Virus record (IMG/VR): IMGVR_UViG_3300050821_013777
Span: 32,001 to 96,000 of that record
Source of the DNA: a virus
Length of the DNA stretch: 64,000 nt
Strand: one strand, 5' to 3'
Every line of letters begins with the position of its first letter. Positions within the stretch are counted from its first letter, which is position 1. The translations under genes were made by a program, and so were the position numbers. The notes beneath the pieces are model-generated. The model was not told where the DNA came from. It ran no database searches and saw only the letters and a program-made list of their open reading frames with translations. Positions 1 through 22,326 of the stretch are shown in pieces.

Positions 1-668
1 TGACGCAGAACGGACCCGGCGGACGCGGCTCCATCCCTGCGCTCGTGATGCGCACGGGTCTCATTCAACCGGTCGACCCGGCGAACGCGCGCCGCGACGT
101 CCAAGCGAACCACGTGCGCGATGTGACCCACTGGCCGACCGATCAGATTCCCTCGCCCGACGGCATGGATTCGCTGCCACCGGCGATGCCGATGTCGACC
201 GCGCCACAGATGACGCCGATCCCGGCGCCGTACAGCCCGCTGACGACTGCAGTCGCGCAGACCGTCGCGGCCGTGCCGCCGCAGCCGATCACCAACCTCT
301 CGCCCGGCCCGATGCCACGACGGGAGAGCGACCGGCACCACTGGCATCACCAGCATCGGCACGTGCACCCGATGGTCGCCGACATCCAGCGGCTGCATCC
401 CGGCGCGCGCTTGCACGGCGCCGACGACATCCTGCTCGGTGAGTGGAACGGCAAGCCGGTGGCGAAGTTCGAGATCGCTGCCTCGCCGCCCGCGAACGGT
501 GCACAGGGCGCCATCTACGCGCTCCGCGACGCCGCCCGCCATCTCGTGCAGAGCGGGCTCGCAGCGCTGCCGCCGGAGCTTGTCGGTGGTCCGCTCGCGG
601 CGCTCATGCGCGGCGGCGCCGTCGAGCTGCATTTTCAGAATGGGGTTGTCGCTCGAACGGCGCTCTGA
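1..668 (+). CDS. Pro-rich hypothetical protein, probably 5'-truncated by the window edge
   Basis: The frame of ORF 45..668 stays open to the window start; GC3-rich codons; first gene of the structural-looking operon. Confidence 0.6.
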   Translation, partial: TQNGPGGRGSIPALVMRTGLIQPVDPANARRDVQANHVRDVTHWPTDQIPSPDGMDSLPPAMPMSTAPQMTPIPAPYSPLTTAVAQTVAAVPPQPITNLSPGPMPRRESDRHHWHHQHRHVHPMVADIQRLHPGARLHGADDILLGEWNGKPVAKFEIAASPPANGAQGAIYALRDAARHLVQSGLAALPPELVGGPLAALMRGGAVELHFQNGVVARTAL

Positions 669-706: not shown

Positions 707-817
707 ATGGCCAAGAAGAGGAAGTGCCGGTACGGCGTCAACAAGATCAAGGGGACCTGCCTCAAGCACAAGCGCACGGGCTTGAGCGGCTCGCGTCACC
801 GTCGCAAGCGGCGCTAG
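707..817 (+). CDS. 36-aa highly basic protein (MAKKRKCRYG...GLSGSRHRRKRR), putative DNA-binding core protein
   Basis: SD AAGGAG upstream of ATG 707; Arg/Lys-rich; carries the LSG-polybasic tail seen in the 51-56 kb array. Confidence 0.65.
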   Translation: MAKKRKCRYGVNKIKGTCLKHKRTGLSGSRHRRKRR

Positions 818-865
818 TTCCACCCCACCACACCCAAAACCACAACCCCAACAAAGGAACACATC

Positions 866-1402
866 ATGGCTCGACACAGGTTCCGCGGGTTCGGTGACGG
901 CGGGGGAAATCCCGCCATCGCTGGTCCGCTCATCGGCGGCGGTGCCACGCAGATCGGCATCATGCTCGCTCACCTGCACGCGAAGAAGAATCCGGCGGCT
1001 CTCCGGCACTCGGGGATTCACGGGCTCGTCCTCGGCGGTCTCGTGGGCGGCGCGCTGGCGTTCACCCACAAGCATCGGCAGACGGGCATCAGCGCGCTCG
1101 TCACCGTCGGCATCATCACGCTGCCCCGCATCCTGGAGGGCTTCATGGGCCTCGGTCATCGCGACGAGACCATGAAAGGCTACGAGCTGGGGATCATCAC
1201 GCCCCAGGCGTACGAGGCTCTCTCGGGCGCAGGCGACGAGGCCGCTGTCCAGATCATGGACTCGGGCTCGGGCTCGACCGGAATGCTCGGAACGCACGTC
1301 GCGGAGGAAATCCATCCGATGGCGGGCGCGGGCGGCGCGGGCGAGTACGTCGAGATGCTCGGCAGCTCGGGCTTCGGCTCGAACTTCCTCAGCGCGCAGT
1401 AG
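866..1402 (+). CDS. putative virion membrane protein (3 hydrophobic Gly-rich segments)
   Basis: SD AAAGGAA; hydrophobic segments; GFG/GLG motifs; lies directly upstream of the putative capsid gene. Confidence 0.65.
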   Translation: MARHRFRGFGDGGGNPAIAGPLIGGGATQIGIMLAHLHAKKNPAALRHSGIHGLVLGGLVGGALAFTHKHRQTGISALVTVGIITLPRILEGFMGLGHRDETMKGYELGIITPQAYEALSGAGDEAAVQIMDSGSGSTGMLGTHVAEEIHPMAGAGGAGEYVEMLGSSGFGSNFLSAQ

Positions 1403-1528
1403 GCGCGATCGATTTTTCTGTGCGTCCGGCGAGCCGCTGCTCCGGCGCAGGTGACCAACTTCGGCGGCAAACCCACAAAGAGGGGGACCACACCGGCTAA
1501 GCCGACCCCCCTCGAAGGAACAACTCAG

Positions 1529-2622
1529 ATGGCAAATACCGGCACACTGACTGTGCGAGTTCGGGGGGTTCCGTTCCCCATCGAGTTCGCGGACTGGACC
1601 CACGACCGCCTCTACGCCACCGTCGAGTTCGAAGGAACCGACAGCCAGGTGATCCAGGCGTTCATCGGCGCGCAGGGCGCCACGATCCCGGGCGGCGCGC
1701 GCACGCTGACCTCGGTGGACACCAACATCCCGCGCTCGGGTGACACCGGGTTGCAGGAGGGTTGGGAGATGCTGATCTACAGCATCCAGATCCAGATCGA
1801 CCGCGAGATGGCGCGCAATGCGTCCCAGCAGTTCTTCCAGCTGCAGGACCAGACCAACGTGGGCGGCGCGACGCAGTTCAGCCGCAACGTCCACCTCGGG
1901 GGCTACGACCCCAGCAACACCGCGGGCGGCGTGCTCTTCGACTTCCTCCGGAAGACCTACCACAAGTTCCAGGTCAACCAGAAGGTCCAGTCGGAGGGCC
2001 CGGTGTCCAAGTACCCGCAGGGGTCGGGCATCTCGGTCTTCGGCACCACGACGAACCTGGAGAACGCGAACAACGGCTTGCCGTCGCCGCGTGACCAGTC
2101 GGCGTTCGTGCTGCCGATCTGGCTCCGCCCGAACATCGCGTACGTGGCGCTCCTCGCGCCACAGGCGACGCTCGGCATCGGCGGCGCCTCGGTCGCGTCG
2201 GGCCCGCCGTTCCCGACGGTCGAGGGCTACTTCGACTGGTCGTCGATCCCGGCGACCAACATCGGGTTCGACGTGAAGGAGACCTTGGAGGGTCAGGAAG
2301 GCCCCCTCAACTAGCGATAGTTGAGTGAAGAACTCGGTGAATTGCTGGAAACTCCTTAAGCCATGAACACCACAACGCAGCCGAAAACGGCAATCGTGAC
2401 GGTTCGAAAAGTTCACGGATTGGACAATCAGCAGCCAAGCCTCACTCGCGTGGGGAAGGTTCAGAGACTAGGGGGCAACCCCGTAGGGTCCAAGCGGATC
2501 CGAAGTGCCGAGCACCTGTTCGCAGGTGGTGATGTAGTCCGACCTGAATCGAAAGATTCAGAGGTGTGCTGGAAGCGAGCACACCGCAACGTGGCCAGCT
2601 TCTGCGCCGCCCCGTCGTCTGA
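1529..2622 (+). CDS. putative large major capsid protein (single jelly-roll type), spliced: exons 1529-2293 and 2599-2622, about 262 aa ending ...ETLEG|LLRRPVV
   Basis: SD GAAGGA before ATG 1529; strongly biased codons; beta-strand-rich sequence; in-frame splicing restores the C-terminus. The capsid function is inferred from size, composition and context. Confidence 0.6.
2294..2598 (+). ncRNA. group I self-splicing intron, no internal ORF (305 nt)
   Basis: P AATTGCTGGAAA 2340-2351, Q AATCAGCAGC 2426-2435, R GTTCAGAGACTA 2459-2470, S GATGTAGTCC 2531-2540; P1 U2293-G2301 wobble; P2 CTCAACTA-GCGA-TAGTTGAG; P3 CTCGG/CCGAG; P7 GACTA/TAGTC; P8 and P9 hairpins; terminal G2598; P10 pairing of exon-2 CTTC with GAAG. 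Confidence 0.92.
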
Positions 2623-2655
2623 TCGAGAGCTGAACTAGGCTCGATCCGAACGACA

Positions 2656-2700
2656 AGAAAACCCCCGACGCTCGAAAGAGTGTCGGGGGTTTTCTCTTTT
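2656..2700. terminator. bidirectional intrinsic terminator
   Basis: AGAAAACCCCCGACGCTC-GAAA-GAGTGTCGGGGGTTTTCT with T-tract, between convergent genes. Confidence 0.85.
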
Positions 2701-4009
2701 ACAGCCCATTCATCCCAGGTGGATACGGGACGCCTTTTTTACCGAACAGTTCGGGGTGCTCTTCTTGTAGATGTCGTGCGAGTTGTACGGCGTGCTTGTA
2801 GCGTCTCCACCCAGCGACGATCGCGACGCCTTGCTCAGTCAGCTGGCCGTTCTTCAGCAGACCCCAGCGGCCGAACGCACCTACTGGCGCGCGTACTCCT
2901 CGATCTACTTCGTCAAGACGTTCAGCACGCTCGCCGAACGCGAGAAGTAGTCGAACGCGGTTCATGGAGTGGACGAAGGCCCTTGCGTCGAGGAGCTGCA
3001 GCATCTCTCCGGCGCGCAGTGTGATGTGCGTGCCTTCATCAGTGTTTCGATGGTAGCTGCCTGCCTCGAAGGTCCAGCCGAACGCCTCAGCGAGCGCACG
3101 CTTGACAACTCGGTGCTCAGCGGCGTGCCCTGCGAGACGCAAGTCCTTGCTATTCTTTCCGTCTACGAACGCCCCGTCCCCGTCTAGCCATCCGAGCGCG
3201 AATTCTCGTGCAGCGTCGGGTGAAGGGAACGGCGCAGCGAAGATCTGCGCAAGCGCGACGCGCGCTATCCGCAGCAGCGGGCTCGACTTCCGCACGTGAA
3301 TGATGCCAGCATTTTCGCCTCGTCCAGGTGCGCGAGCGCGCTCGGCTACAATCTCGACGCCAAGAGCCTCATACTTCTGGCGCGCGTGCACAGCAGGTTC
3401 GTCCCAGGCGTGCAGCACCTCCAGCGAAAGTCGTGATCGGGGCAGCCCCCACTGGGCGAGCAAATCAATCGCGTGAGCCAGCAGTAGTGGGTTCGTGTTC
3501 GCAAAGGTGAAGTCGACGGCCTCTTGCCCCTTCGTTCCCTCAGCCTGCCAGAGACCTAGCACACGATAGACGGCCAGTGGTGGCGGAACACGGGTCAGCT
3601 CGAACGGCGGCTCGTGCTGGTTCCAGATCGACAGGGCCCCCCCTGCACCATCGACGGGAAAGTAGCTCTCGTGCGTGACATGTGGCAGCCAGTCGAAAGC
3701 ACTGTCTGCTCGGGGCCGCGCAGCGTACGGCTCGGCGCTCTCCGCCTCGACGTGCAGTACGGTGCCGCGCTCGATCCCCGGCGCGCAGTATCGCGGCAGC
3801 GTGACATCGACGGACGCCCGCGACGGCGGCCGGCGGGCGTACGCGAAGAATGGCGTGCTGCTGTTCACACGCAGACGCAGCCACCCTGGCGCCTGAAACG
3901 TCCCATCGAGCGTCCTGTATTCAGCGGGTATTGTCATGCAAGGCGACGTCCCCGTACCAACATTCGCTTTCTTTCCCTGGAAATACGCGACGACGCTGAA
4001 CTTGACCAT
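2699..4009 (-). CDS. free-standing double-motif LAGLIDADG homing endonuclease
   Basis: Motifs YRVLGLWQAEGTK and FALGWLDGDGAF, with FANTNPLL after the first; antisense insertion between the two putative capsid genes. Confidence 0.75.
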   Translation of the reverse strand: MVKFSVVAYFQGKKANVGTGTSPCMTIPAEYRTLDGTFQAPGWLRLRVNSSTPFFAYARRPPSRASVDVTLPRYCAPGIERGTVLHVEAESAEPYAARPRADSAFDWLPHVTHESYFPVDGAGGALSIWNQHEPPFELTRVPPPLAVYRVLGLWQAEGTKGQEAVDFTFANTNPLLLAHAIDLLAQWGLPRSRLSLEVLHAWDEPAVHARQKYEALGVEIVAERARAPGRGENAGIIHVRKSSPLLRIARVALAQIFAAPFPSPDAAREFALGWLDGDGAFVDGKNSKDLRLAGHAAEHRVVKRALAEAFGWTFEAGSYHRNTDEGTHITLRAGEMLQLLDARAFVHSMNRVRLLLAFGERAERLDEVDRGVRAPVGAFGRWGLLKNGQLTEQGVAIVAGWRRYKHAVQLARHLQEEHPELFGKKGVPYPPGMNGL

Positions 4010-4092
4010 TTGAAGGTAAGTTTAGCACCGCCGTCAATCGCCCGTCTGTGGTCGATTACACGAAGCTGGCTTTCCGGAGCAGTCGGGCCAGT

Positions 4093-4130
4093 TTGCCTTC
4101 CACCCCGCACCCGTCCTATCATCGCTTTCT
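4093..4130 (+). promoter_or_regulatory. sigma70-like promoter, leaderless or near-leaderless
   Basis: TTGCCT-18 nt-TATCAT, 8 nt before ATG 4131; no SD. Confidence 0.55.
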
Positions 4131-4625
4131 ATGAGCGTCGGCGACATCTCTCCTGGTCTCGAAGCGATGATGGTCCAGCTCGGGCCGTGGATTCACCACA
4201 TCAAGGCGGCCCTCGATCCGCTGCTCGGGCAGCCGATCATCCGCATGCCCTATTCGCTGCCGCTCGCGCAGGCGCAGGTCATCCCGCCGGGTGGACAGAA
4301 CGTCGTGCTCAACTCGACGTCGTTCACCTTCAACCTCGAATGGCCGATGGAAGTGCACGAGGTGAAGTTCTCGCAGGACATCGCGCACACCTACCGCGAC
4401 TGGCAGGTGTACATCCAGGATCAGACGTTCAACCAGCCGCTGCAGAAGAACGCGTCGTCGGTGGCCGATCTCGTCGACGACAACACCGGCAAGTGGGTCT
4501 GGCGGTTTCCCTGGACGATTCGTCCGAAGGGTGGCGCGATGAACGTGGCCGTGAACAACCTCGACACGGTGAACCCGATCACCGTCGACATGTCGTTCCT
4601 CGGCTTCCTGATGATCCCACGGTAG
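4131..4625 (+). CDS. putative small major capsid protein (single jelly-roll, 164 aa)
   Basis: Alternating beta-strand pattern ending ...MNVAVNNLD...ITVDMSFLGF; biased codons; size comparable to small SJR capsid proteins. Function inferred. Confidence 0.55.
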   Translation: MSVGDISPGLEAMMVQLGPWIHHIKAALDPLLGQPIIRMPYSLPLAQAQVIPPGGQNVVLNSTSFTFNLEWPMEVHEVKFSQDIAHTYRDWQVYIQDQTFNQPLQKNASSVADLVDDNTGKWVWRFPWTIRPKGGAMNVAVNNLDTVNPITVDMSFLGFLMIPR

Positions 4626-4630
4626 TCGCG

Positions 4631-5092
4631 ATGGCCGAAGGCCGTTCATTCTCTGAGCTGGCAGGCAGTGGGGTCCTTGGCGGCCCGCGCGCGGGCTCGC
4701 GCTCGACACCGAACCAGGTCCCCACACCGAACTCCGAGCCGCTCGGCGCGAAGACGGGTGCACCGCCACGCGTGCGCTTCTACTCGACGAAGATCATCCC
4801 ATTTACTGCGATCGGCGTGCGGGGCGCTGAGCCGACGCAGATCATTCCGCCGACGCCGCCAAATCGTCTCATCACGCTGACCGCACCGTTCGTCGGGTTC
4901 ACGATCTACATCGGCGACTCGGGCGTCTCTCCTACCACTGGACTGGCACTGCCGCCGGGCCGTGACTATCAGGCGCAGCTGGTCGGTCTGCAGGAACTGT
5001 ACGCTGTGACGGACGCACCCATCTATATGACGCTGCAGATTCAAGTGTCGCCGATCCTGTTCGCGGAGCGTGAGCGAAAGACCGAGCTGTAG
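4631..5092 (+). CDS. putative penton/spike-base beta-sandwich protein
   Basis: ATG 4631 just after the previous stop; motif TIYIGDSGVSPTTGLALPPG...LYAV typical of small viral beta-sandwich structural proteins. Confidence 0.5.
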   Translation: MAEGRSFSELAGSGVLGGPRAGSRSTPNQVPTPNSEPLGAKTGAPPRVRFYSTKIIPFTAIGVRGAEPTQIIPPTPPNRLITLTAPFVGFTIYIGDSGVSPTTGLALPPGRDYQAQLVGLQELYAVTDAPIYMTLQIQVSPILFAERERKTEL

Positions 5093-5104
5093 GAGCGCAC
5101 GCAG

Positions 5105-5692
5105 GTGATCCCCCTGGCGTTGCTCGCGATGACGGGACTGATCGTCGCGGCCTACAAACTGACGAACGACCACAATCTCGCGCGCATCGCTGCTGGCACA
5201 GGGCTGCCGCTGCAGTACGTACAGTTCGCGGCGAAGGCAGCCCACGCGAATGGGGTGCCGCTCGAATGGGTCCTGGCGACGATCATCGTCGAGTCGAAGG
5301 GAAACCCTCGTGCTCGCGGCGACGCTGGCGGAAAATCTGTAGGATTGATGCAGGTCAACGTCGTGGCGAACGCAAAGGTTCTGGCGAACGCGGGTGTGAC
5401 TTCCACACAGATGTTCGATCCGGCTACGAATATCCGCATCGGCACACAACTACTCGCCGGGTTCAAACAGCGCGTACTTGATGCGCTCGTCGGCCACGCA
5501 CCGTCGCTACCACTCGACGAGTTGACTCGCCTCGAATACAAGGGGCCAAAGTCCATCGAAGGTGCCATCCGAAGTGGCAGGAACCCGCTCACGGCGTATC
5601 CTGACGCGCCACAGGCCGTTACGCGTTGGCGAGAGGCGCTTGCGACGGTCCGAGCAGCAGCTGGACCGCAGACGATTCGCGTCTTCTCGTAG
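5105..5692 (+). CDS. lytic transglycosylase (SLT domain) with N-terminal membrane anchor
   Basis: Catalytic VES, GLMQV and FDPATNIRIG motifs. Confidence 0.9.
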   Translation: MIPLALLAMTGLIVAAYKLTNDHNLARIAAGTGLPLQYVQFAAKAAHANGVPLEWVLATIIVESKGNPRARGDAGGKSVGLMQVNVVANAKVLANAGVTSTQMFDPATNIRIGTQLLAGFKQRVLDALVGHAPSLPLDELTRLEYKGPKSIEGAIRSGRNPLTAYPDAPQAVTRWREALATVRAAAGPQTIRVFS

Positions 5693-5881
5693 AGGGGTCG
5701 CGGCTCCGGCGGCGCATCGCGTGTACCGCCGGAGCTACTGTTTCCCCGCGGTACTGTCTTCTGCCACTTCTTCGAGTGGTGGCAGTCTCCGGGGCGACGA
5801 TTTGAGCGCGGCCGAGACGTAGACTACCACGGCCGGGCGCTTTTGACCCCGGCTGCCCCCCTGGTGTAGCCTGATCGCACG

Positions 5882-6349
5882 ATGATCGTCCGCACGTACG
5901 TGGTCAAGATGCCGACTGCCGTGTCCACGGTGCCGCTGGACATCCTGGTGCAGAACAACCCTGGCTCGCAGTCCGCACCTGTCGTGGCTGGCAGCGACGG
6001 CGCCTACTACGAGGTGCTCGGCCGCCCGTTTCGCATCCCCGTGCTCGCATCTGCAGGGCAGGCCGGTGGCTTCGTCTCGCCACTGCGTCTCGGCTTCTCG
6101 ATCGCGATCACTCCATACGCGGCGGCCATCTCGGCAGCTGTGCCGGGCGCGCAGCTCTCAGCGTCGCTCGCGAGCTTGTCGAGCACGGATGCAGGTCCGT
6201 CGATCGCGCTACCCGCGTTTCCTGATCCGGCTGGCGGCCCGTCGCTGCGCCTCGTGGGTGGCATCGCGACGGCAGGATTGTTCTTCATCGTGTCGCTGTT
6301 CGTGGCCGAAGCCAAAGACGCTGATCGATCGGGGACGTCGGGGAGCTGA
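5882..6349 (+). CDS. hypothetical, probable virion protein
   Basis: Promoter TTGACC-18-TAGCCT upstream; TGATG coupling to the next gene. Confidence 0.6.
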   Translation: MIVRTYVVKMPTAVSTVPLDILVQNNPGSQSAPVVAGSDGAYYEVLGRPFRIPVLASAGQAGGFVSPLRLGFSIAITPYAAAISAAVPGAQLSASLASLSSTDAGPSIALPAFPDPAGGPSLRLVGGIATAGLFFIVSLFVAEAKDADRSGTSGS

Positions 6350-6798
6350 TGATCTCCTCGAACCTCGGCGCCGGCTACGCGCTCGTCACGTACCCTCCGG
6401 ACTGGAACCCGAACGAGGGGGGCGGCCCAGTTCGCCGCGCGCCTGGCTCGAACGTCGAGGTCGCGCACGCCGGCAACACCGTGTACCGCACGCCGAACAC
6501 GAACGTCATCGAGGCAGAGCCCGGCGCGCGCTGGCCGGGTGACCTCTCGAAGATGATGTTCCTGCCCGACGGCCGTCTCGTACCGGCGACGGCCGCTGCC
6601 TACGATATGTTCCGCGGCGCAGATGATCCGTTCGTACGTGGCAAGTTCAGTGTGAAGGTCAAGCGCTCGATCGGCGCGAGCGTGGTGGCGATCGTCGGCG
6701 CCGGCTTCGGTGCGGCGCTGGCGCCCAGCGACCGACGCGTGGCGGGCACGGTGGTGGGTGCAGTCGCCGGAGGAATCCTCGGGCTGATCTTCGGGTAG
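6349..6798 (+). CDS. membrane protein with C-terminal glycine-zipper helices
   Basis: VVAIVGAGFGAAL and VVGAVAGGILGLIFG. Confidence 0.65.
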   Translation: MISSNLGAGYALVTYPPDWNPNEGGGPVRRAPGSNVEVAHAGNTVYRTPNTNVIEAEPGARWPGDLSKMMFLPDGRLVPATAAAYDMFRGADDPFVRGKFSVKVKRSIGASVVAIVGAGFGAALAPSDRRVAGTVVGAVAGGILGLIFG

Positions 6799-6802
6799 AG
6801 CG

Positions 6803-6973
6803 ATGGTCACGCTCGCGCGCCCCCTCGGTTCATTCTCCGCCGACGCCAGGACCGCAGTCCAACAGGCGCCAGGGTACTTCATGGCCTGGTACACGGTGAA
6901 GTCGGTTGGCCTCTGTGTCGCCGTCGCAGCGCTGGCGTTCGTGATCGGGAGAGCAGGACGCAAATGTTCCTAG
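6803..6973 (+). CDS. 56-aa single-TM protein (not in ORF track)
   Basis: MVTLARPLGSF...VGLCVAVAALAFVIGRAGRKCS fills the gap between neighbouring genes. Confidence 0.55.
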   Translation: MVTLARPLGSFSADARTAVQQAPGYFMAWYTVKSVGLCVAVAALAFVIGRAGRKCS

Positions 6974-7668
6974 ACGACGCCGGCCGCCAGCTCATGGCCG
7001 AGCGTAACGGCGAGCACGCGAACGCCAGCGTGCAGCTTCTCGGGCCTCCGAAGCCCACCGGTGCCGATGCACAGCAGGCGGCCGCACTGCTCGCGCCGAT
7101 GCAGACGAACCGCCAGGCGCGGATGGTGCTCGGCGTCGTCGCGCAGTACCTGCAGCAGGGCTACCAGACCGCAGCGACCGTGCCATCGTTTATCTCGCCG
7201 ATCGACGGCACGTCCATCGCGTCGAAGGCGATGATCTCGCTGCTCGACACGGACAACCGCTACGCGATGCGCGTCTACGCTGGGCTGCCGGACAACGACG
7301 CGCCGGTGAGCCCGCTCGATCGCAAGAAGGTTGCGCTGGCCGTGACACAGGCGCTGTCGAGCACAAAGCTCGTGAGCACTGAGGCGGCCGATCTGAACCG
7401 CGGGCTCGTCGGTTCGCTGATCGATCTGTTCAAAGAGGGGCTGCAGAAGCTCGCGACTGACGCGGCCCACAACCCGCTCGCGGCGCTCAAGTGGGCCGGC
7501 GTTGGGCTGGCGGTGCTCATCGGGCTCTTCATCGCTGGCAAGCTCGTGCACACGATCGCGTTCGGCGGCGCTGGGCACGGTGGAGAGGCCGATGCGCTGC
7601 TCGAAGCTGAGGAGGCGGCCGTGGCCATCATGGGTGCCAGGTTGCGCAAGCCCCGCCGCAAGCGTTAG
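6964..7668 (+). CDS. membrane protein with basic C-terminal tail
   Basis: TM segment WAGVGLAVLIGLFIAG; ends MGARLRKPRRKR. Confidence 0.65.
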   Translation: MFLDDAGRQLMAERNGEHANASVQLLGPPKPTGADAQQAAALLAPMQTNRQARMVLGVVAQYLQQGYQTAATVPSFISPIDGTSIASKAMISLLDTDNRYAMRVYAGLPDNDAPVSPLDRKKVALAVTQALSSTKLVSTEAADLNRGLVGSLIDLFKEGLQKLATDAAHNPLAALKWAGVGLAVLIGLFIAGKLVHTIAFGGAGHGGEADALLEAEEAAVAIMGARLRKPRRKR

Positions 7669-7677
7669 AATTCTGGC

Positions 7678-7860
7678 ATGATCGGTCAAGCACCACCCCC
7701 CAAGAGCAACGCGGGCCTCGCAGCGGCCATCTTCGGCGGCTTGGCAGCGGTCGGCGGCATCGCGGCGGCGGCCTACGTGTCGCGGCCGAAGCCCGCGACG
7801 GGCCCGAAGCTGAGCGGGCCGCGGTTCAAGCAGAAGAAGCCCTGCGGCTGCGGGCGCTGA
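7678..7860 (+). CDS. small TM protein ending KLSGPRFKQKKPCGCGR
   Basis: Leaderless promoter TTGCGC-18-TAGAAT-6-ATG; one hydrophobic helix. Confidence 0.65.
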   Translation: MIGQAPPPKSNAGLAAAIFGGLAAVGGIAAAAYVSRPKPATGPKLSGPRFKQKKPCGCGR

Positions 7861-8283: not shown

Positions 8284-9393
8284 ATGTCCATGGCCGTACT
8301 ATCAGAGTTGATAAGATTCGATGCTACCGAGCGGTCTGCCTCGCGAGTCAACAAGCCAGAAGTTTCGGAAGCGCTGAAGGATCTTGCCGCCCTACTGAGA
8401 TTGGGTAAATTCAAGACCCAGCGCTGGCGCGACGAGCTGCCGTGGGACGAATCCTACGTCAAGGAGGCTGTCGCCATCGAGCGCGTCCTCCAGCCCCACC
8501 GCCGCGCCGGCTTGGTTGGGGCATCGGCCGCAGCTCCCGCGGGGCTTGAAGAAGCGGGGTTCATCTGGCGGCAGATCCTGCGGGGAAGCGATGTACAGCC
8601 CTTCGATCCGTGCGCCGATAGAGGTCCCTGTACTAAGAAGGACAGATATTACGTCGAGCATGTCACCATCTCGGTCGATCACCCCGACTCTATCCTCCGA
8701 GCGACCCGATCTCCTGTTACGCCGCTGGCCAACATTAGGAAACTCGCCGACGCATTCTGCTTCGTAGCCATGCCCCTGTGGGCGCTCGATCCGCAGATCT
8801 TTACCAACGAGATAAGGCGCTCAGTGGACGCCTTCTGGGACCTCGAAGATCTCAACTTGGACGTCTACGCCCTGGCGCCCCTATCCCTATACTCCTTGGC
8901 TGGGCATGTCGCCAGTGAAGCCGGTACCGAGATGTACGCCCCGCCACCGTTACAGCAAGTAGTGGTGGGCCTGCGGATGAATGTCCCCATGTTCCGCTCT
9001 ATGCAGATTGATGTGGCCGACCTGCGGAAGGACATGGAGCAACTCCGCGCTCGGGTCGACAAGTTGGAGGAGACCACCCGTAGTATGCAGCGGCAAATTG
9101 CATCAATACAGGAGAGCTTGGCTTCAGTACAAAATGAGGTGGCCGCCCAGCGCTTGGAGATCCTTAATCTGTCCTCCCTGCTCTCCCAGGCCCAAGCGGC
9201 GCCGACCTACTTCGGCCAAGACCCGCTGCTGTTCGCAGTACCCCGGGGTACCATGCTCGCGACGGCCAACGTCCAGGCCATCCTAGGCCCCTGCTGGGGT
9301 GCCGACATTGATGATGCAGTGGTCACGGCCGCGGGGTTCCGTCCCAATAAAGCTCTCCGCGCCAAGTACACCAAATCGCTGAGGTGGGCATGA
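8284..9393 (+). CDS. hypothetical protein with long coiled coil
   Basis: 369-aa ORF; heptad repeats at about residues 240-305; codon usage differs from flanks. Confidence 0.7.
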   Translation: MSMAVLSELIRFDATERSASRVNKPEVSEALKDLAALLRLGKFKTQRWRDELPWDESYVKEAVAIERVLQPHRRAGLVGASAAAPAGLEEAGFIWRQILRGSDVQPFDPCADRGPCTKKDRYYVEHVTISVDHPDSILRATRSPVTPLANIRKLADAFCFVAMPLWALDPQIFTNEIRRSVDAFWDLEDLNLDVYALAPLSLYSLAGHVASEAGTEMYAPPPLQQVVVGLRMNVPMFRSMQIDVADLRKDMEQLRARVDKLEETTRSMQRQIASIQESLASVQNEVAAQRLEILNLSSLLSQAQAAPTYFGQDPLLFAVPRGTMLATANVQAILGPCWGADIDDAVVTAAGFRPNKALRAKYTKSLRWA

Positions 9394-9572
9394 GTCCATA
9401 CGAAGCGCGGCTGCTTGTACGAGCGCTCGACGCTTTCATGGACGCTCGAACGGAAGCCACCCGAACAGCACTCACGAAAGTGTTGGAGGCTGTTCCTCTC
9501 GACCGAAACTATCGTGGAGGGATGCTGCACCTGGAAGCTCTCCATGAGCAGCATGAGAAGGAGCCGTACTGA
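9390..9572 (+). CDS. small hypothetical protein
   Basis: ATGA overlap with the upstream stop. Confidence 0.45.
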   Translation: MSPYEARLLVRALDAFMDARTEATRTALTKVLEAVPLDRNYRGGMLHLEALHEQHEKEPY

Positions 9573-9587
9573 ACTCCCTTCTAGCGA

Positions 9588-9794
9588 TCAGCGCGGCACG
9601 ACGCAGCGGCGGAAGAACTTCTCGCGAGCCTCGCCGAGCGCCCGGCGACCGCCGCCGGTCTTGCCGTGGGCCTCGTGGGCGCGCCCCAGAGCGTTCAGGG
9701 CCGCGGTGCAGTGGCCGAAGCCAGCATTCGAGATGACCTCGTTGGCGTGCGTCTCGACGAGCTGAGAGCGCTTGGAGCGACGGCGGCGGGTCAC
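9588..9794 (-). CDS. small basic protein, GxCxAA family
   Basis: MTRRRRSKR...GHCTAALNAL...RRCV; abuts the upstream gene. Confidence 0.6.
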   Translation of the reverse strand: MTRRRRSKRSQLVETHANEVISNAGFGHCTAALNALGRAHEAHGKTGGGRRALGEAREKFFRRCVVPR

Positions 9795-10067
9795 TTACTT
9801 CACACAGGAGCTTTTGAACACCGAAAACGCCTTGCTGGTCAGCTCTGTACGAAGCGAGATCTGCCTGCCGCCGGCTCGGCGTTCGCTCTGGGCGCGACCC
9901 ATGTACATCGCCATGTTGTGCAAGTAGGAGAGTGCCGCTGCGCACGAACGATCTTTGACAGCCGCGATGGCGTTGCCTGCAGCCGCCTCAGCTTCATGGG
10001 CTGCCGCATCGAAACGTTTTGTGTGCTCCTCCGCGCTCGACCCCAACCCCCGCCGCCGACGCTTCAC
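9795..10067 (-). CDS. small basic protein, GxCxAA family
   Basis: KRRRRGLG...RSCAAALSYL...SSCVK; GTGA overlap with the upstream stop. Confidence 0.6.
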   Translation of the reverse strand: MKRRRRGLGSSAEEHTKRFDAAAHEAEAAAGNAIAAVKDRSCAAALSYLHNMAMYMGRAQSERRAGGRQISLRTELTSKAFSVFKSSCVK

Positions 10068-10330
10068 TTGCCGCACGCCTCTTCAGCAAGCCCTGCCGCT
10101 TTGTGCAGCCGGCTGCCGCTGAACCACAGGGCGGCCGCGCCGAGCAGCGACAGCGCCGCAGGGCCCCACCCCTTGTGGAAGCCCCGGTAGATCCCGTAGC
10201 CGCCGAGCCCGAGGCTGCCAAGGCGGGTGACGCCGCCGGCAACCTTGAGTGCCGTCGCGTTCGGGCAGGAGGGCATCGGGCCGCCCAAGAGCTGGACGTC
10301 GGGAGAGCCGCTGATCGTGTAAATCTCCAC
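10064..10330 (-). CDS. small 2-TM protein
   Basis: Promoter TTGCAC-18-TACCAT-7-GTG; N-terminus EIYTISGS shared with the 47785..48345 protein. Confidence 0.6.
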   Translation of the reverse strand: MEIYTISGSPDVQLLGGPMPSCPNATALKVAGGVTRLGSLGLGGYGIYRGFHKGWGPAALSLLGAAALWFSGSRLHKAAGLAEEACGK

Positions 10331-10428
10331 GAATCAGATGGTACTAGGATAGTGGGTTGGCGTGCAACTCTTCGGCTTCGACGGCAGGCTGTCCCACCTC
10401 CACCACGCTCATGCCGGGCACCAAAATA

Positions 10429-10509
10429 TTAAGAGTGATCGACGCGCCCGACCCCACGGTACACCTTGCCGTCGATCGCGGTGATTTTGTCGCCCGGCGC
10501 CCGGAGCAT
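10429..10509 (-). pseudogene. truncated remnant of the DEG-W-RGW family
   Basis: MLRAPGDKITAIDGKVYRGVGRV matches family N-termini (AGDKITA, QGDIITA) but stops after 26 codons. Confidence 0.45.
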
Positions 10510-10510
10510 T

Positions 10511-10879
10511 TCAGTGGTTCAGGACTACGCGGGCTGCGAAAGTGTTCTGGCCAATCACGCCAGCAGGTCCCGTCGGCCCGGTTGGACCGATCGGGCACGG
10601 CTGCCCTGACTCCCAGAGCTTCTTGGCTGCGAGCAGCACCTGCACGTCCTCAGAATCTTCTGCGTGTGCGCCACGGACCCACGAAATGCCCTCATCGTGA
10701 TCGTAGGCAGGTACGATCGGCGTCGCGGCGCGGACCTGCGGCTCGTCTGGCATCCAGTAGAACCCGATCGCTTCTTTGTAGTCGGGAGGCGCTGCTAGTA
10801 GTCCCTCGGTGACAACGCTGCCGATCACTATCTGCCCGCTGACGAGCCCAGTGATCTTGCTGTCGCGCGCCGGTCTCAC
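10511..10879 (-). CDS. DEG-W-RGW family paralog
   Basis: HDEGISWVRGAH...QVLLAAKKL; short GPT collagen-like tail. Confidence 0.75.
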   Translation of the reverse strand: MRPARDSKITGLVSGQIVIGSVVTEGLLAAPPDYKEAIGFYWMPDEPQVRAATPIVPAYDHDEGISWVRGAHAEDSEDVQVLLAAKKLWESGQPCPIGPTGPTGPAGVIGQNTFAARVVLNH

Positions 10880-11163
10880 TCGGCGACCTGAGCCACTTGC
10901 ACCACAGCGTTGCCGCCTTCGAGCCTGTAGTCGAACGAGACGACCACCTTGTCGTCCTCGCTGGCCACGTCGCAGTTGCTGTCCTTCATGGCCTTGAGCG
11001 CGCGGTCGCGGAGCCTGCCGATAACCGCGAATGCCTTTTCTGTGTCGGCGCGATCGGCCTCGGCGATCGGGATGGCCACGTCGTCGGCGATCAGGTGCAC
11101 GTCGTCGTGCACGCGGGTGATGGTTGCGTCGGAGGCTCGCTTCGTGGCAGGCCGGAACACCAT
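10876..11163 (-). CDS. hypothetical protein
   Basis: Coupled ORF within the minus-strand operon. Confidence 0.6.
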   Translation of the reverse strand: MVFRPATKRASDATITRVHDDVHLIADDVAIPIAEADRADTEKAFAVIGRLRDRALKAMKDSNCDVASEDDKVVVSFDYRLEGGNAVVQVAQVAE

Positions 11164-11172
11164 GTTCGGGGA

Positions 11173-11436
11173 TTATGCCAGGCTCCTGGCTGAGGCGTCA
11201 AGACGGTAGGCGGCGAGGAGAGCATCGGGGTTGTCCCAGCCCTTGGCCCAGACCGTGCCCTGCGCGGCGTAAGACAAGACCCACCAGTCGGTGCCGCCGA
11301 CCACGACAATAGGCGATCCATCTGACGTGTGCCCCTCGACGATCCCTTTGAGGACGCGCCAAGAATTCCAGTCGTGCCCACCGAATACCAACAGCACGCG
11401 CTCCCCTGCCTCCACCGATGCCGGATGCAGCGCCAC
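11173..11436 (-). CDS. DEG-W-RGW family paralog
   Basis: AAQGTVWAKGW...DALLAAYRL. Confidence 0.7.
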   Translation of the reverse strand: MALHPASVEAGERVLLVFGGHDWNSWRVLKGIVEGHTSDGSPIVVVGGTDWWVLSYAAQGTVWAKGWDNPDALLAAYRLDASARSLA

Positions 11437-11712
11437 CTACGCCGACCACTCCAGCATGAACGCCGCGAGTAACGACTCCCGTCCCGCGGCGCTCGTGTCT
11501 CGGCTCCAAGTCACGCCCTCATCGCGCACGCGCAGCGCCGCAGCTGCAGGATCGTGCTGGCCTGCTCGACAGTTGAACCAGTCGCCGTCGACGTCGTCTG
11601 GGCGACTGAAGCAGGCCACTATGTCTGCTTCTAGGATTCGGGGATCGCGATCAAAAAATCGGCTTCCTTCATTCACGATCACGATTCTGGTGCCTGGATG
11701 CAGGTCCATCAA
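11437..11712 (-). CDS. DEG-W-RGW family paralog
   Basis: RDEGVTWSRD...ESLLAAFML. Confidence 0.75.
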   Translation of the reverse strand: MMDLHPGTRIVIVNEGSRFFDRDPRILEADIVACFSRPDDVDGDWFNCRAGQHDPAAAALRVRDEGVTWSRDTSAAGRESLLAAFMLEWSA

Positions 11713-12098
11713 CGACGCCGAAAGCTCGAAGCGTTCTTCGCAGGGACGGGCCGAAATCGCGGTGGCGCTGATGGACGTCGCAGCTGGTTGCGCACGGTCA
11801 TGTCGTGCCAGTCCGCGACGGCGTCGCTCAATCCCTTCATCGCGTCGGTAAGCGGATCTCGATCCTCTCGCGCGAGCATGTTCGCCGCCTTCAACGACTC
11901 GACTTCGCTACTCTCCTCGCGGTGATCGCCCCGAATCCAGGTGATACCCTCATCAGCCACAAGTAGCGTCCCTGATTTGTGCACGTCGTAGAAATGGTGC
12001 CAGTCGAAGCGTCCAGACCGCTGCAGCTGAGTCGTCGGGGCAGCTGCGCGCACAACCTTACCGTTGTTGCACACTATGATGATCGTGAAGCCGATCAT
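11709..12098 (-). CDS. DEG-W-RGW family paralog
   Basis: ADEGITWIRGDH...ESLKAANML; ATGA overlap at 12095-12098. Confidence 0.75.
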   Translation of the reverse strand: MIGFTIIIVCNNGKVVRAAAPTTQLQRSGRFDWHHFYDVHKSGTLLVADEGITWIRGDHREESSEVESLKAANMLAREDRDPLTDAMKGLSDAVADWHDMTVRNQLRRPSAPPRFRPVPAKNASSFRRR

Positions 12099-12397
12099 CG
12101 ATCGCGCTCTCCTGCAGAGAACTCGGCGTCCCACTGGTCGAGGTTCGCGACCCATGCTTCGCGTGACATCTGCCCACGCATGTACAGACCATGTGCTTCT
12201 TCCAGACCTATCGCCTTTGGCCCGCGCAGCTTCCACGCAGCGAGCATCGCTTGCGCGTCCTGCGAATCGTCACCGTGCCAGCCATTGATCCAGTCGATGC
12301 CCTCTGCTCCCTCATCACGCGCGGCGCCATGCCTAATGCCACGGAGAATCACCCCGTTCTTGATGCGCGTGACGAGACGCTGTGCGGAGTCACTCAT
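12095..12397 (-). CDS. DEG-W-RGW family paralog
   Basis: AEGIDWINGWH...QAMLAAWKL. Confidence 0.75.
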   Translation of the reverse strand: MSDSAQRLVTRIKNGVILRGIRHGAARDEGAEGIDWINGWHGDDSQDAQAMLAAWKLRGPKAIGLEEAHGLYMRGQMSREAWVANLDQWDAEFSAGERDR

Positions 12398-12639
12398 TGT
12401 GCTGCCTGGGGCGGCTCCTCTTCGTCGGTGTCGATCTCGCCGGCCTGCATCTTTGCCTCGGCTCGATCAAATCCGGTCATGAGCTGTTCGACGCACGATC
12501 GGCATAGTCCAGCGAACGCAGGTATACCGTTGACGATGACCTCCCTGAGTTCGAGGCGCGCGAGCAGCTCCGCCGGCTGATCGCACATGGAGCAGATGCA
12601 ATCGAACTCGTCACTCGGGAGGAGAAAACGCAACTTCAT
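12394..12639 (-). CDS. small CxxC...CxxC zinc-finger protein
   Basis: CSMC and CRSC pairs. Confidence 0.6.
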   Translation of the reverse strand: MKLRFLLPSDEFDCICSMCDQPAELLARLELREVIVNGIPAFAGLCRSCVEQLMTGFDRAEAKMQAGEIDTDEEEPPQAAQ

Positions 12640-12650
12640 GTCGCTCGACC

Positions 12651-12890
12651 TCACGGTTCGCTGTTGGTGAGCTTCTGTACAGCGTCGACTACGACGAAGT
12701 CGGACTCGGTACGCTCGCCGCGCACCCACGTCGCACCCTCGTCGGCGAGCTGGAAGTAGTGGTTGAAGAGTGCACCGCCCGGAAGGCGCAACTGCACGAA
12801 CATCCGTGTGCCGTCGACGGTGTGCACCTTGCCGATGCCGAGCACGCCGCCGCGTGACCGCGCTGTGATTATGTCACCCTGTTTGATCAT
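12651..12890 (-). CDS. DEG-W-RGW family paralog
   Basis: MIKQGDIITA...ADEGATWVRGE...DAVQKL. Confidence 0.75.
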   Translation of the reverse strand: MIKQGDIITARSRGGVLGIGKVHTVDGTRMFVQLRLPGGALFNHYFQLADEGATWVRGERTESDFVVVDAVQKLTNSEP

Positions 12891-13144
12891 GCTGCGCTCC
12901 TTGCCAGTTTTGCCGCTGCGAGCAACGCTCGCGCTTTGTCATCCCACGCCTGCAGCCACCCGCGTACTCACGTCGCACCCTCGTTGGCATCATCCTCGAA
13001 GCCGCTGCGCAAATCAGCGTCGGTCCACATGAACGAACCAACAAACTGATGCCCACATACCTCGCCGTGGTACAGCCGGCCTGTGTGCTCGCCAACGACG
13101 GTCACCTTCGTGCCGTTCGCAGGGCTGTTCACGCGCTTGCCCAT
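12887..13144 (-). pseudogene. DEG-W-RGW family paralog with in-frame TGA at the conserved Trp
   Basis: ANEGAT*VRGWLQAWDDKARALLAAAKLARSAA; TGA at 12968-12970; frame continues to an ATGA overlap with the next gene. Confidence 0.75.
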
Positions 13145-13512
13145 CAGCGCACCAGCCCCTGTGGGATGAGCTTGTCGTCCCAATAGATGTCGTCGTCTAA
13201 CCAGTGGTAGGAATCGTCGTACCAATCTTCATCGTGCAGGAATAACATCGACGACTCCCTGTTTCCTGCGAGCGCAAAGGCGGCCAACATCGTCGTCACG
13301 TCTTCGCTGTCGATGTCTGGCCAACCGCGAATCCAATAGATGCCCTCGTCACGTCCGTCACAGTCGAGCACGAACGAGCTGATCCCCGCGGTTATCTCAG
13401 CGCCTACGTAGAGTACGGCCTGTTGTTGGCAGAAGCGCGCTCGCATCACGAAGGTCGAGCCGTCTGACAGATACACAGCAGCGGTAATCTTGTCGCCAGC
13501 GTGGAGGCTCAT
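13144..13512 (-). CDS. DEG-W-RGW family paralog with acidic tail
   Basis: MSLHAGDKITA...RDEGIYWIRGWP...TTMLAAFAL. Confidence 0.75.
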   Translation of the reverse strand: MSLHAGDKITAAVYLSDGSTFVMRARFCQQQAVLYVGAEITAGISSFVLDCDGRDEGIYWIRGWPDIDSEDVTTMLAAFALAGNRESSMLFLHDEDWYDDSYHWLDDDIYWDDKLIPQGLVR

Positions 13513-21603: not shown

Positions 21604-22310
21604 TGCCCAAAACAGACCACCTCGCGATCCTGCAGACGCACGAGATGAAGCCGATTATGGATGTCGCGCGCGCCGCAGGCCCCCTCGCCTTCGCGCTCAC
21701 CGCCTGGTGCTACGAATTCGGCGCGCGCACTGCGGAGCCCGGCCTGCAGCTGCTCAAGGACGTCGACATGCGCATCGGCCGCGCCCGCCCGGCGCACCTC
21801 AAAGCCGGCAAGCCCCCCGCGTGGCACATGCTGATGCCATTCTGCCGCGAGGCGCTGCCGGCGTGGCTCGGGGAGCGCAGCTCCAGTTCCTTTCGCCCCG
21901 AGCAGGCGCCCTACCTCTTCCCGAGCCGCATCACAACAGGACGCTGCTATACCTGCGCTGGGTCCGGCCAGCGTCCCGTGCTCAAGCGCCAGGGCAAGCG
22001 CCGCTTCACCGACTCGACGGTCGAGTGCCATCACTGCAACGGTACCGGCGTGCGTTGGGGCGTCGCGCGACAGGAGGTCTACACGATCGTCTCAGGCGTG
22101 CTGAAGGCCGCCAAGGTCGACAAGTCTTGTCGGCACCCGCACGTGCTCCGACATTCGATCATCACGCACCTGCTCGACGCAGGCGTGGCTGACAAGGTGG
22201 TGCAGGACCGCGTCGGACACAAGCAGCTCAACACGACGTTGGAGTACAAGCGAATGACCGAGTCAGCGCTCGCCGAGGTCGAGGCAAAGATGTCGAAGGT
22301 GTACGGATGA
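21603..22310 (+). CDS. tyrosine recombinase/integrase catalytic domain with inserted CxxCxGxG zinc finger
   Basis: GARTAE (R), HPHVLRHS (HxxR), VGH, TTLEY (Y); CYTCAGSG and CHHCNGTG insert. Confidence 0.85.
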   Translation: MPKTDHLAILQTHEMKPIMDVARAAGPLAFALTAWCYEFGARTAEPGLQLLKDVDMRIGRARPAHLKAGKPPAWHMLMPFCREALPAWLGERSSSSFRPEQAPYLFPSRITTGRCYTCAGSGQRPVLKRQGKRRFTDSTVECHHCNGTGVRWGVARQEVYTIVSGVLKAAKVDKSCRHPHVLRHSIITHLLDAGVADKVVQDRVGHKQLNTTLEYKRMTESALAEVEAKMSKVYG

Positions 22311-22326
22311 CAAAGGAGACCCGCCC

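Follow-up and report, generated by a model that had tools for sequence, protein, structure and literature searches.

To our knowledge, all known bacterial viruses whose genomes approach or exceed 100 kb are tailed phages that have a terminase and build their capsid from an HK97-fold protein, and the membrane-containing jelly-roll phages that we know of have genomes of up to ~44 kb. Here we analyse a stretch of 64,000 nucleotides (hereafter the window), comprising bases 32001–96000 of the IMG/VR virus record IMGVR_UViG_3300050821_013777 (121,543 bp), and in it a group of genes at positions 707–7860 that encodes two predicted single jelly-roll proteins, which we call MCP1 and g4131, together with a membrane-anchored lytic transglycosylase and several small predicted membrane proteins. 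This locus probably serves virion morphogenesis in a large bacterial virus outside the tailed phages.

Among the described systems closest to this locus, SSIP-1 (44 kb, T=49, ~100 nm) is presented in PMC6260650, PMC4958249 and PMC6356626 as the largest described virus with two major capsid proteins (MCPs) of the vertical single beta-barrel type. Genomes of Halopanivirales (Sphaerolipoviridae, Simuloviridae and Matsushitaviridae; kingdom Helvetiavirae) are given as 16–31 kb in PMC12642351 and PMC12643093, and according to PMC12714852 the kingdom was transferred in 2025 to a new realm, Singelaviria. The structural account in PMC6414509 describes the penton protein VP9 of HCIV-1 as one beta-barrel with a long N-terminal helix contacting the membrane, the penton of HHIV-2 as disordered over its first 40 residues, and the two pentons as 20.7% identical. 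In SPV1 (Portogloboviridae), one jelly-roll protein forms hexamers and another pentamers, with a lipid layer inside and a core of condensed nucleoprotein (PMC8459092).

The present record has a G+C content of 63.5%, lacks end repeats and is rated 88% complete by CheckV; we compared it with eight further IMG/VR records, giving nine in all (G000, our own, and G001–G008). Three of the relatives (G004, G005 and G007) have direct terminal repeats and are rated 100% complete, G006 is linear and rated 99% complete, and end repeats of 127 bp are found in both G004 (102,927 bp) and G002 (89,081 bp). Genomes in the group start at about 90 kb and reach 138 kb or more, the circular relatives measuring 89–103 kb. 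The group resembles SSIP-1 in its bacterial host and circular genome, while its genomes are two to three times larger and come from soil, SSIP-1 being a halophile phage. Genome size also separates it from Halopanivirales, at 121,543 bp (incomplete) for our record and at least 89 kb across the group. Given the high G+C content, open reading frames (ORFs) were chosen by their G+C content at third codon positions (GC3). The two capsid candidates lie as follows:

1529–2293, plus strand: MCP1 exon 1, 255 codons; predicted single jelly roll plus insertions, candidate major capsid protein
2294–2598, plus strand: group I intron of 305 nt without an ORF of its own, seven codons before the MCP1 stop
2599–2622, plus strand: MCP1 exon 2, seven codons and the stop; encodes LLRRPVV, with which the 98%-identical homologue P0001 also ends
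4131–4625, plus strand: g4131, 164 aa; predicted N-terminal helix (residues 8–32) plus single jelly roll, candidate penton base or small major capsid protein

Read without splicing, MCP1 is an ORF of 261 aa at 1529–2314; the spliced product has 262 aa. Folded by way of a 98%-identical natural homologue with 66 aligned sequences, it gave an AlphaFold2 model that is nearly all beta strand (predicted local distance difference test score, pLDDT, 80.6; predicted template-modelling score, pTM, 0.80); a hydropathy scan also flags residues 192–210, where the model is mostly beta strand. For fold comparison we employed VIA, run for g4131 over 48,161 PDB representatives together with a re-alignment of Foldseek's top 1000, on a scale where Z below 8 may mean merely a common arrangement and Z gaps below 1 are ties. 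The best matches to MCP1 were nucleoplasmin (Z 6.3), a nanovirus capsid (6.1) and SPMV (6.0), with SPV1 at Z 5.9 (138–140 residues aligned) and P23-77 VP17 at only Z 5.0–5.3, and 44 of the 50 matches listed were virus capsid or cement proteins. Since these matches align from about residue 20 to residue 262, they point to one jelly roll with strands spread along the whole chain and with large insertions, and on this model MCP1 is a predicted jelly roll.

The MCP1 family is large and unnamed. At least 180 homologues were found at E 0.001 or better, the 120 listed being 58–98% identical to MCP1, without any functional name; the longest of the contigs that carry them has 132 kb. When 1.84 billion representatives of clusters were searched with a profile, with clusters defined at 50% identity, 124 MCP1-like clusters were found at E 0.001 or better, 45 of these at 1e-10 or better; none of the 36 representatives scanned contained a Pfam family, and tblastn of MCP1 against 50,697 GenBank phage records gave no match. 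In the ESM Atlas, the look-alikes of MCP1 were unnamed viral clusters only; the nearest Pfam-bearing clusters carried PM2 P2_N/P2_C, and these were rejected as relatives at a score of 0.76, which is chance level. The GC3 of MCP1 ranks first among 111 ORFs, and that of g4131 second. The two families are not detectable paralogues, as an hhalign comparison between them gave a probability of 0.3%.

The AlphaFold2 model of g4131 (pLDDT 91.3) consists of the helix at residues 8–32 and then an eight-stranded barrel. Its top viral matches in the VIA comparison, all capsid or penton chains at Z 8.0–9.2, included the following, given with root-mean-square deviations (rmsd):

6h82_b, HHIV-2: Z 9.2, rmsd 3.7 Å, 117 residues aligned
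6qt9_C, SH1: Z 9.0, rmsd 3.4 Å, 120 aligned
6h9c_K, HCIV-1: Z 8.4, rmsd 4.5 Å, 129 aligned
6oj0_A, SPV1: Z 8.4, rmsd 3.3 Å, 122 aligned
3j31_P and 4ind_A, STIV A223: Z 8.1–8.2, rmsd 3.2–3.3 Å, 107–108 aligned
1hqn_A, PRD1 P3: Z 8.1, rmsd 3.4 Å, 114 aligned

Against BFVD, Foldseek returned 36 matches to g4131 at E 0.001 or better, and 75 sequence homologues were found. On the model, the jelly-roll fold of g4131 appears secure and its kinship with viral capsid proteins only suggestive. The HHIV-2 chain 6h82_b starts at residue 39, and residues 1–40 of the HHIV-2 penton are disordered, suggesting that the top match is probably that penton. As g4131 also evolves faster than MCP1, it may itself be a penton and not a second major capsid protein; its build and fast divergence favour the former role, and its high GC3 favours an abundant protein.

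The same observations bear on a variant of our main reading with capsid make-up and packaging like those of SPV1, in which MCP1 alone would form the hexamers and g4131 the pentameric vertex, with the basic peptide listed below condensing the DNA, with no packaging motor and with another job for the HerA-type ATPase described below; we consider this arrangement possible, if somewhat doubtful. It would fit the helix-plus-jelly-roll build of g4131, which is that of HCIV-1 VP9 as described in PMC6414509, the agreement of its top match with the HHIV-2 penton, and its divergence, much faster than that of MCP1, as is also the case for the HCIV-1 and HHIV-2 pentons. SPV1 chains stand near the top of both match lists (Z 5.9 and 8.4), and SPV1 itself is built from jelly-roll hexamers and pentamers around a wound nucleoprotein core (PMC8459092). 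However, the second-highest GC3 suggests that g4131 is an abundant and not a 60-copy protein, the Z gaps are ties, with HCIV-1 VP7 and SH1 VP4 scoring equal to the penton, and SPV1 infects archaea with a genome of 20 kb.

The remaining genes of the block, and the conserved gene that precedes it, all on the plus strand, are:

45–668, plus strand: g45, 207 aa, conserved protein upstream of the block
707–817, plus strand: basic peptide of 36 aa with two cysteines and a protamine-like look, at the start of the block
866–1402, plus strand: g866, 178 aa, glycine-rich predicted membrane protein with a hydrophobic segment at residues 75–93; GC3 0.87; kept in seven of seven loci
4631–5092, plus strand: g4631, 153 aa, disordered Gly/Pro/Ser-rich N-terminus plus a predicted small beta barrel; vertex or penton candidate
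5105–5692, plus strand: membrane-anchored SLT lytic transglycosylase (PF01464), hydrophobic helix at residues 1–19
5882–6349, plus strand: g5882, 155 aa, C-terminal membrane helix
6349–6798, plus strand: g6349, 149 aa, two C-terminal glycine-zipper membrane helices; weak Pfam glycine-zipper match (E 0.011)
6803–6973, plus strand: single-pass membrane protein of 56 aa, with homologues elsewhere in the L005, L006 and L011 loci
6964–7668, plus strand: protein of 234 aa with one membrane helix near its C-terminus
7678–7860, plus strand: single-pass membrane protein of 60 aa, with a homologue in L007

Membrane helices were called by a crude Kyte-Doolittle hydropathy scan (19-residue window, threshold 1.5), which predicts them in seven of the 11 plus-strand ORFs of 707–7860, namely 866–1402, the SLT gene, 5882–6349, 6349–6798, 6803–6973, 6964–7668 and 7678–7860. 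The SLT domain is well above its Pfam cut-off (E 3.5e-13; 49.6 bits against 21.3). The basic peptide has AAGGAG 7 nt upstream of its ATG and a GC3 of 0.95, the top value of the block, and a version of 29–41 aa with 41–53% Lys+Arg occupies the same place in seven of seven relatives; it is a candidate DNA-condensing core protein, which could act like the core protein of SPV1. For g4631, with 47 homologues, the ESM Atlas model is of low confidence (pLDDT 0.56) and resembles cupin barrels over residues 50–143; the nearest Pfam-bearing cluster, PRD1_P5_spike_N at a score of 0.89, is a lead only. An earlier note on this DNA, made from the letters alone, had singled out two adjacent beta-rich ORFs of about 262 and 164 aa, a penton-like ORF, a membrane-anchored SLT and many small transmembrane proteins. 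All of these are present at or near the positions given there, the SLT with both its domain and its N-terminal hydrophobic anchor; for the penton-like ORF, the 153-aa one at 4631–5092, the low-confidence model shows a cupin-like barrel.

By tblastn against seven close IMG/VR loci (L005–L011), the gene order g45, g866, MCP1, g4131, g4631, SLT, g5882, g6349 is kept in four (L005, L007, L008 and L009, in all of which the SLT gene is syntenic). L010 keeps it as far as that locus reaches, ending after g4631, and in L006 and L011 the block is split. In all seven, g45 precedes g866, at full length with 55–57% identity in four and as a partial match in three; g45 has no Pfam or PHROG match. MCP1 is the most conserved protein across these loci (61–88% identity), followed by g4131 (51–60%) and g4631 (33–62%). 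Relatives of MCP1 lie on eight IMG/VR contigs of 36.6–105 kb, and identical copies of g4131 and g4631 occur on one contig of 138,494 bp.

The block was also found in RNA libraries. Three soil metatranscriptome runs contain 32–57% of the sampled words of 1400–5200, and the RNA contigs on MCP1 and g4131 show zero differences in two of these runs and two in the third; the runs containing most of the stretch are soil samples. Features that indicate a bacterial host include the SLT, GH25 muramidases, a Dam methylase, a DnaA C-terminal domain, a Shine-Dalgarno-like motif and, in G004, a sigma-70 factor. Among 185,579 species-representative genomes, MCP1 was found in one, a Vicinamibacterales bin in which the contig that bears it has 107.8 kb; this is a weak lead to the host.

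Tailed-phage hallmarks were not found. Pfam on 141 translations of the whole contig (79 of them from the window) and PHROGs on 112 detected no terminase, portal, HK97 capsid, tail tube, sheath or tape measure, in agreement with the earlier note, which had seen no HK97 capsid, portal, terminase or tail genes in the 64 kb. Six-frame searches of the nine records gave no match to PF03237 (terminase) and none above the cut-off to PF03354, and those for PF05065 (HK97 capsid) and PF04860 (portal), the sole capsid and portal families searched in this way, gave none in five records each; in control genomes the same searches found terminases, portals and capsids. In G004 (circular, 102.9 kb), 138 ORFs were run through Pfam, leaving out five that span piece joins, and the 70 without a Pfam match through PHROGs, and no tailed-phage hallmark appeared. 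A weak sub-threshold TerL_ATPase match in G006 turned out to be a DEAD/ResIII helicase and was rejected as a terminase.

These results bear directly on whether the virus could be a tailed phage (Caudoviricetes) with hallmark genes too divergent or left unassembled, and with jelly rolls that serve as decoration, cement or fibre proteins. Several features are consistent with such a phage: the automatic taxon labels of the ESM Atlas look-alike clusters are Uroviricota, the replication genes are phage-like, fibre-like proteins match PHROG 'tail fiber' families by way of collagen- or fibre-like segments, jelly-roll cement and turret proteins of tailed viruses are among the fold matches, and our contig is incomplete. 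Yet in G004, G005 and G007, all rated 100% complete, neither a terminase nor a portal was matched, and PF05065, run on G004 alone among these three, did not find an HK97 capsid there; the Pfam and PHROG scans of G004 are empty of hallmarks apart from one 'terminase' PHROG match that falls on a HerA-type P-loop domain. Together with the identification of the G006 match as a helicase and the positive controls, this makes a tailed phage very unlikely. Neither an HK97 capsid nor a portal or terminase gene, any of which would have spoken against the earlier note's proposal, was seen in the 121.5-kb contig or in the eight related records.

That PHROG match belongs to a 574-aa protein of G004 (phrog_2666, 'terminase large subunit', E 2.8e-14), which we rejected as a terminase. 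The protein has a Walker A motif GTRGSGKT and a Walker B motif FIFEEGH, its Pfam matches to HerA/DUF87 and to TrwB (E 6.8e-4) are weak, and a profile of four such ATPases matches solved HerA helicases at E 8.8e-18 to 1e-12. The earlier note had seen no packaging ATPase in the window and had suggested a search of the rest of the contig. A HerA-type ATPase is indeed encoded there, in a gene that the end of the contig truncates and of which the final 164 residues remain (contig 120,824–121,318), and it occurs in five of the nine records (G000, G001, G004, G005 and G007), including three of the four rated at least 90% complete. PF04665 (A32) and PF01580 gave no match in five records. We judge the chances that this ATPase packages the genome to be about even.

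The TrwB coupling-protein match is also one of the features that would suit a non-viral mobile element, such as a large plasmid, in which the beta-rich and membrane proteins would form a cell-envelope or secretion-related module. The assembly of relatives as 89–103 kb circles, a tyrosine recombinase, a ParB-like protein and the relative binned in a Vicinamibacterales genome point the same way. Against this, no relaxase, VirB4 or other conjugation gene appeared in any Pfam scan, and the group encodes a lysozyme (GH25), the DNA-modification protein DpdA and ThyX alongside a complete set of phage-type replication genes and a homologue of the SSIP-1 virion protein gp34. IMG/VR classes these as virus records, and the extreme conservation and codon bias of MCP1 fit a capsid protein; a mobile element of this kind is extremely unlikely.

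Several observations weigh against a non-tailed virus with a jelly-roll capsid. No particle has been seen, and the internal membrane follows only from the membrane-helix predictions. Foldseek of MCP1 against PDB and BFVD gave no match at E 0.001 or better, and the best Z of MCP1 (6.3) is weak, lying below the mark of 8. Unrelated jelly rolls score within 1 Z of the viral matches of g4131 (an arabinofuranosidase at 8.8, the plant protein HDT2 at 8.1), and the decoration or cement proteins of tailed phages can be jelly rolls too, with KHP40 and HFTV1 among the matches; the 'tail fiber' matches mentioned above belong here too. Presence in an RNA library is by itself no proof of transcription. The ATPase profile matches the packaging ATPase B204 of STIV and STIV2 only at E 0.32–0.38, and protein, hidden Markov model (HMM) and Walker-motif searches did not find the ATPase in G002, G003, G006 or G008. 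Its nearest relative among GenBank phages, 37% identical over the ATPase domain, lies in a 43-kb tailed phage with terminase, portal and capsid genes of its own. With the tailed phage MW202482.1, which carries this 37%-identical domain at 20547–22415, the only other shared feature is a weak methylase match, which suggests that the HerA-type ATPase moves between unrelated viruses.

The uneven distribution of the ATPase and the constancy of the basic peptide return us to the SPV1-like arrangement without a motor. A peptide kept in seven of seven relatives, beside an ATPase not found in four of nine records, would suit a wound core; however, of the four records without the ATPase, three are probably incomplete, and the fourth, G006, is 99% complete but linear. 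Further differences from SPV1 are its archaeal hyperthermophile host, its lack of polymerase genes and the absence of sequence similarity, and the high rank of its chains for both models is within the noise range.

Taking the block as the morphogenesis module of a non-tailed virus, we next consider its likeness to Halopanivirales, of which the earlier note had proposed a much larger relative. The two jelly-roll capsid candidates are adjacent and near P23-77 VP17 and VP16 in size, the best fold matches of g4131 are chains of HHIV-2, SH1 and HCIV-1 (Z 8.4–9.2), its helix-plus-barrel build matches the VP9 penton, many small membrane proteins are encoded beside the capsid genes, and most complete relatives have an ATPase of the FtsK/HerA superfamily. 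Unlike in Halopanivirales, this ATPase is long, HerA-like, far from the capsid genes and confined to five of the nine records, and the replication set is PolA-based and the virus's own. Both spliced MCP1 and g4131 are predicted jelly rolls, as the proposal had it, with the low Z of MCP1 against VP17 as a reservation; no sequence or profile link to P23-77 VP16/VP17 or to SH1/HHIV-2 VP4/VP7 was found. Our profiles A2 and A3 had no match among all PDB chain sequences, a set that includes P23-77, HHIV-2, HCIV-1 and SH1 entries, and the wider profile A5 gave only ribosomal and RING chance matches at E 0.19 or worse. Kinship with Halopanivirales is not shown by sequence.

A second comparison is with PRD1 (Tectiviridae), where the capsid genes come together with those for small membrane proteins and for the virion-associated lytic transglycosylase P7. 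The second jelly roll of PRD1 P3 matches g4131 at Z 8.1, but PRD1 differs in its double jelly-roll capsid protein, its linear genome of 15 kb and its protein-primed PolB replication.

The sole tie to a cultured virus is to SSIP-1, whose structural protein gp34 is homologous to a transglutaminase-like protein of this family (phmmer E 1.3e-7 in G004 and 9.4e-5 in G000, both against a small local database). In addition, the BFVD entry I1ZBI0, which has the top TM-score by query (0.57) among the 50 g4131 matches listed, has the length of SSIP-1 gp47 (256 aa) and is presumably that protein. Neither MCP1 nor g4131 showed sequence or profile similarity to SSIP-1 gp37–gp53 (HMM searches, and hhalign with nine structural proteins at a probability of at most 1.2%).

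The transglutaminase-like protein is also common to a distant contig of 36.6 kb (L012), where it is encoded at 5042–5623, upstream of an MCP1-like gene at 9911–10669 whose product is 26% identical to MCP1 and whose neighbours encode proteins of 345, 272 and 355 aa. In GenBank phages, tblastn found no match to either the MCP1-like or the transglutaminase-like protein of this contig, which may represent a smaller-genome branch linking the group to viruses of the size of SSIP-1.

These comparisons suggest how a particle could be built. MCP1 would form hexagonal capsomers that tile the facets; g4131 would either occupy the vertex as penton, its helix extending to the membrane like that of HCIV-1 VP9, or act as a second small capsid protein, and g4631 would also be located at the vertex. 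An internal lipid vesicle would hold the anchored SLT and the small membrane proteins, which would open the peptidoglycan on entry, a step performed in PRD1 by P7. The 36-aa basic peptide would condense the DNA, and the genome would be driven into the shell by the HerA-type ATPase or, as in SPV1, be wound into a condensed core. Collagen- and fibre-like proteins encoded elsewhere in the window could provide surface fibres. What the data show are the predicted folds, the conservation, the presence in RNA libraries and the lack of hallmark genes; the roles named here are inferred.

A wider reading, possible rather than probable in our view, is that these are the largest non-tailed phages known (~90 to more than 138 kb, three times SSIP-1). 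They would form a lineage at family level or far above it, with an MCP1 family lacking a detectable sequence tie to classified viruses, active in soil and perhaps on Acidobacteriota. A genome of jumbo-phage scale would then be housed in a membrane-lined jelly-roll shell, its DNA condensed by a protamine-like peptide, with a HerA-like motor recruited independently of A32-type ATPases or with no motor; a literature search found no paper on jelly-roll phages of ~100 kb or on this group. If this is true, a widespread soil group shows that bacterial viruses can have large genomes without tailed-phage architecture, in parallel to the giant viruses of eukaryotes. The group combines jelly-roll capsid candidates with genes of its own for replication, nucleotide metabolism, DNA modification and glycosylation, and with collagen-like fibres, putative inteins and a capsid-gene intron, and it adds new material to the debate on how single jelly-roll capsids (realm Singelaviria) arose. 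It would also expose a blind spot of virus-detection pipelines, in which such contigs are labelled as tailed phages.

The intron in MCP1 is recognised by the Rfam model RF00028 at 2284–2561 on the plus strand, with 83.4 bits against a gathering cut-off of 50. The eight intron-less relatives all end in TLEG-LL[KR]RPVV or a close variant, as do most of 13 aligned homologues; here TLEG ends at 2293 and LLRRPVV with its stop occupies 2599–2622, which defines the intron as 2294–2598 and the product as 262 aa. Consistent with these borders, a soil RNA contig of 1163 nt joins 1400–2293 to 2599–2621 with the intron exactly missing, while a DNA run spans the intron continuously. A 335-nt contig from a second RNA run spans the whole intron and then repeats its first 30 bases, as is typical of a circular path in the assembly, in which reads join 2598 to 2294, and this suggests full-length intron circles. 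Counting against the splice, the joint has 23 letters on its shorter side, under the 30-letter comfort mark, and the evidence consists of assembled contigs and not reads; an intron-less strain could conceivably be their source. By sequence reading, GGGU (2290–2293) would pair with GCCC (2301–2304) as P1, closed by a U-G wobble, and CUUC, the first bases of exon 2 (2599–2602), could pair with GAAG (2297–2300) as P10. None of the loci of seven close relatives contains a group I intron.

Downstream of MCP1 lie two further features:

2656–2702, no strand assigned: GC-rich hairpin with A and T runs at its flanks, between the convergent MCP1 and 436-aa genes
2699–4009, minus strand: ORF of 436 aa, convergent with MCP1, patchy in its presence

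The hairpin is probably a two-way terminator; its sole Rfam match is a sub-threshold ctRNA at 26 bits. The 436-aa ORF contains GLWQAEGT and LGWLDGDG, motifs that resemble LAGLIDADG and make it a putative free-standing homing endonuclease of that type; searches of Pfam (even at E 5), PHROGs and PDB gave neither a LAGLIDADG nor any other match. It has partial matches in L006 and L008 and is absent from L005, L007, L009, L010 and L011. No RNA contig lies over 2670–4066, a contig gap that carries no finding, and the DNA run covers 3318–4067 and parts elsewhere. The layout, an ORF-less intron beside this ORF, resembles 'collaborative homing', in which an ORF-less intron reportedly works with a free-standing endonuclease, as is said in the literature on cyanophage S-PM2.

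Other inserts were noticed outside the block. ThyX (window 59990–61924, minus strand) is interrupted by a LAGLIDADG-type insert (Pfam LAGLIDADG_3, E 2.5e-4), and the transglutaminase-like virion protein (L002, 10513–11778, plus strand) has a weak intein-splicing match; with the intron, these inserts would amount to several self-splicing elements in the genome.

The wider gene content includes a replication set of PolA fused to UDG, a PolB-type exonuclease, AAA_24, PD-(D/E)XK, SNF2, a DUF3987 primase-helicase, a RecD-like helicase and a topoisomerase, and also a Dam methylase, a tyrosine recombinase, a ParB-like protein, GH25 and collagen-like proteins. The nucleotide and glycosylation genes that the earlier note had ascribed to the virus are borne out by Pfam as ThyX, thymidylate kinase, several glycosyltransferases and a DegT aminotransferase. 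The topoisomerase (L001, 2041–3273, minus strand; phrog_6247, E 1.4e-88) and a SET-domain protein (L002, 5140–5526, plus strand; E 3e-10) are unusual in phages and reminiscent of large eukaryotic viruses. In G004, a DpdA homologue (L013, 11881–12693; E 2.3e-66) points to deazaguanine DNA modification. A trio at contig 8415–13376 (L001), comprising a MoxR-type AAA+ ATPase, a DUF2201 metallopeptidase/VWA protein and a DUF6744 protein, is 39–61% identical in G002 and G004, and its GC3 (0.87–0.88) is among the highest of the genome; several P-loop ATPases, the MoxR-type protein among them, are common to G000, G002 and G004, beside the replication helicases.

Three genes on the minus strand of the window encode collagen- or fibre-like proteins: one of 2026 aa with collagen repeats (34674–40754; Pfam Collagen, E 1.2e-69) in a stretch of 70% G+C, a collagen-like protein of 450 aa (46120–47472) and a fibre-like protein of 511 aa (33105–34640). 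These genes are flanked by glycosyltransferase-methyltransferase fusions, and their products may be glycosylated surface fibres. Finally, a 242-aa ORF at window 44154–44882 (plus strand), with no Pfam match above noise, matches the 'minor coat protein' family phrog_1644 (E 6.1e-19) and overlaps the end of a glycosyltransferase gene at 42301–44313.

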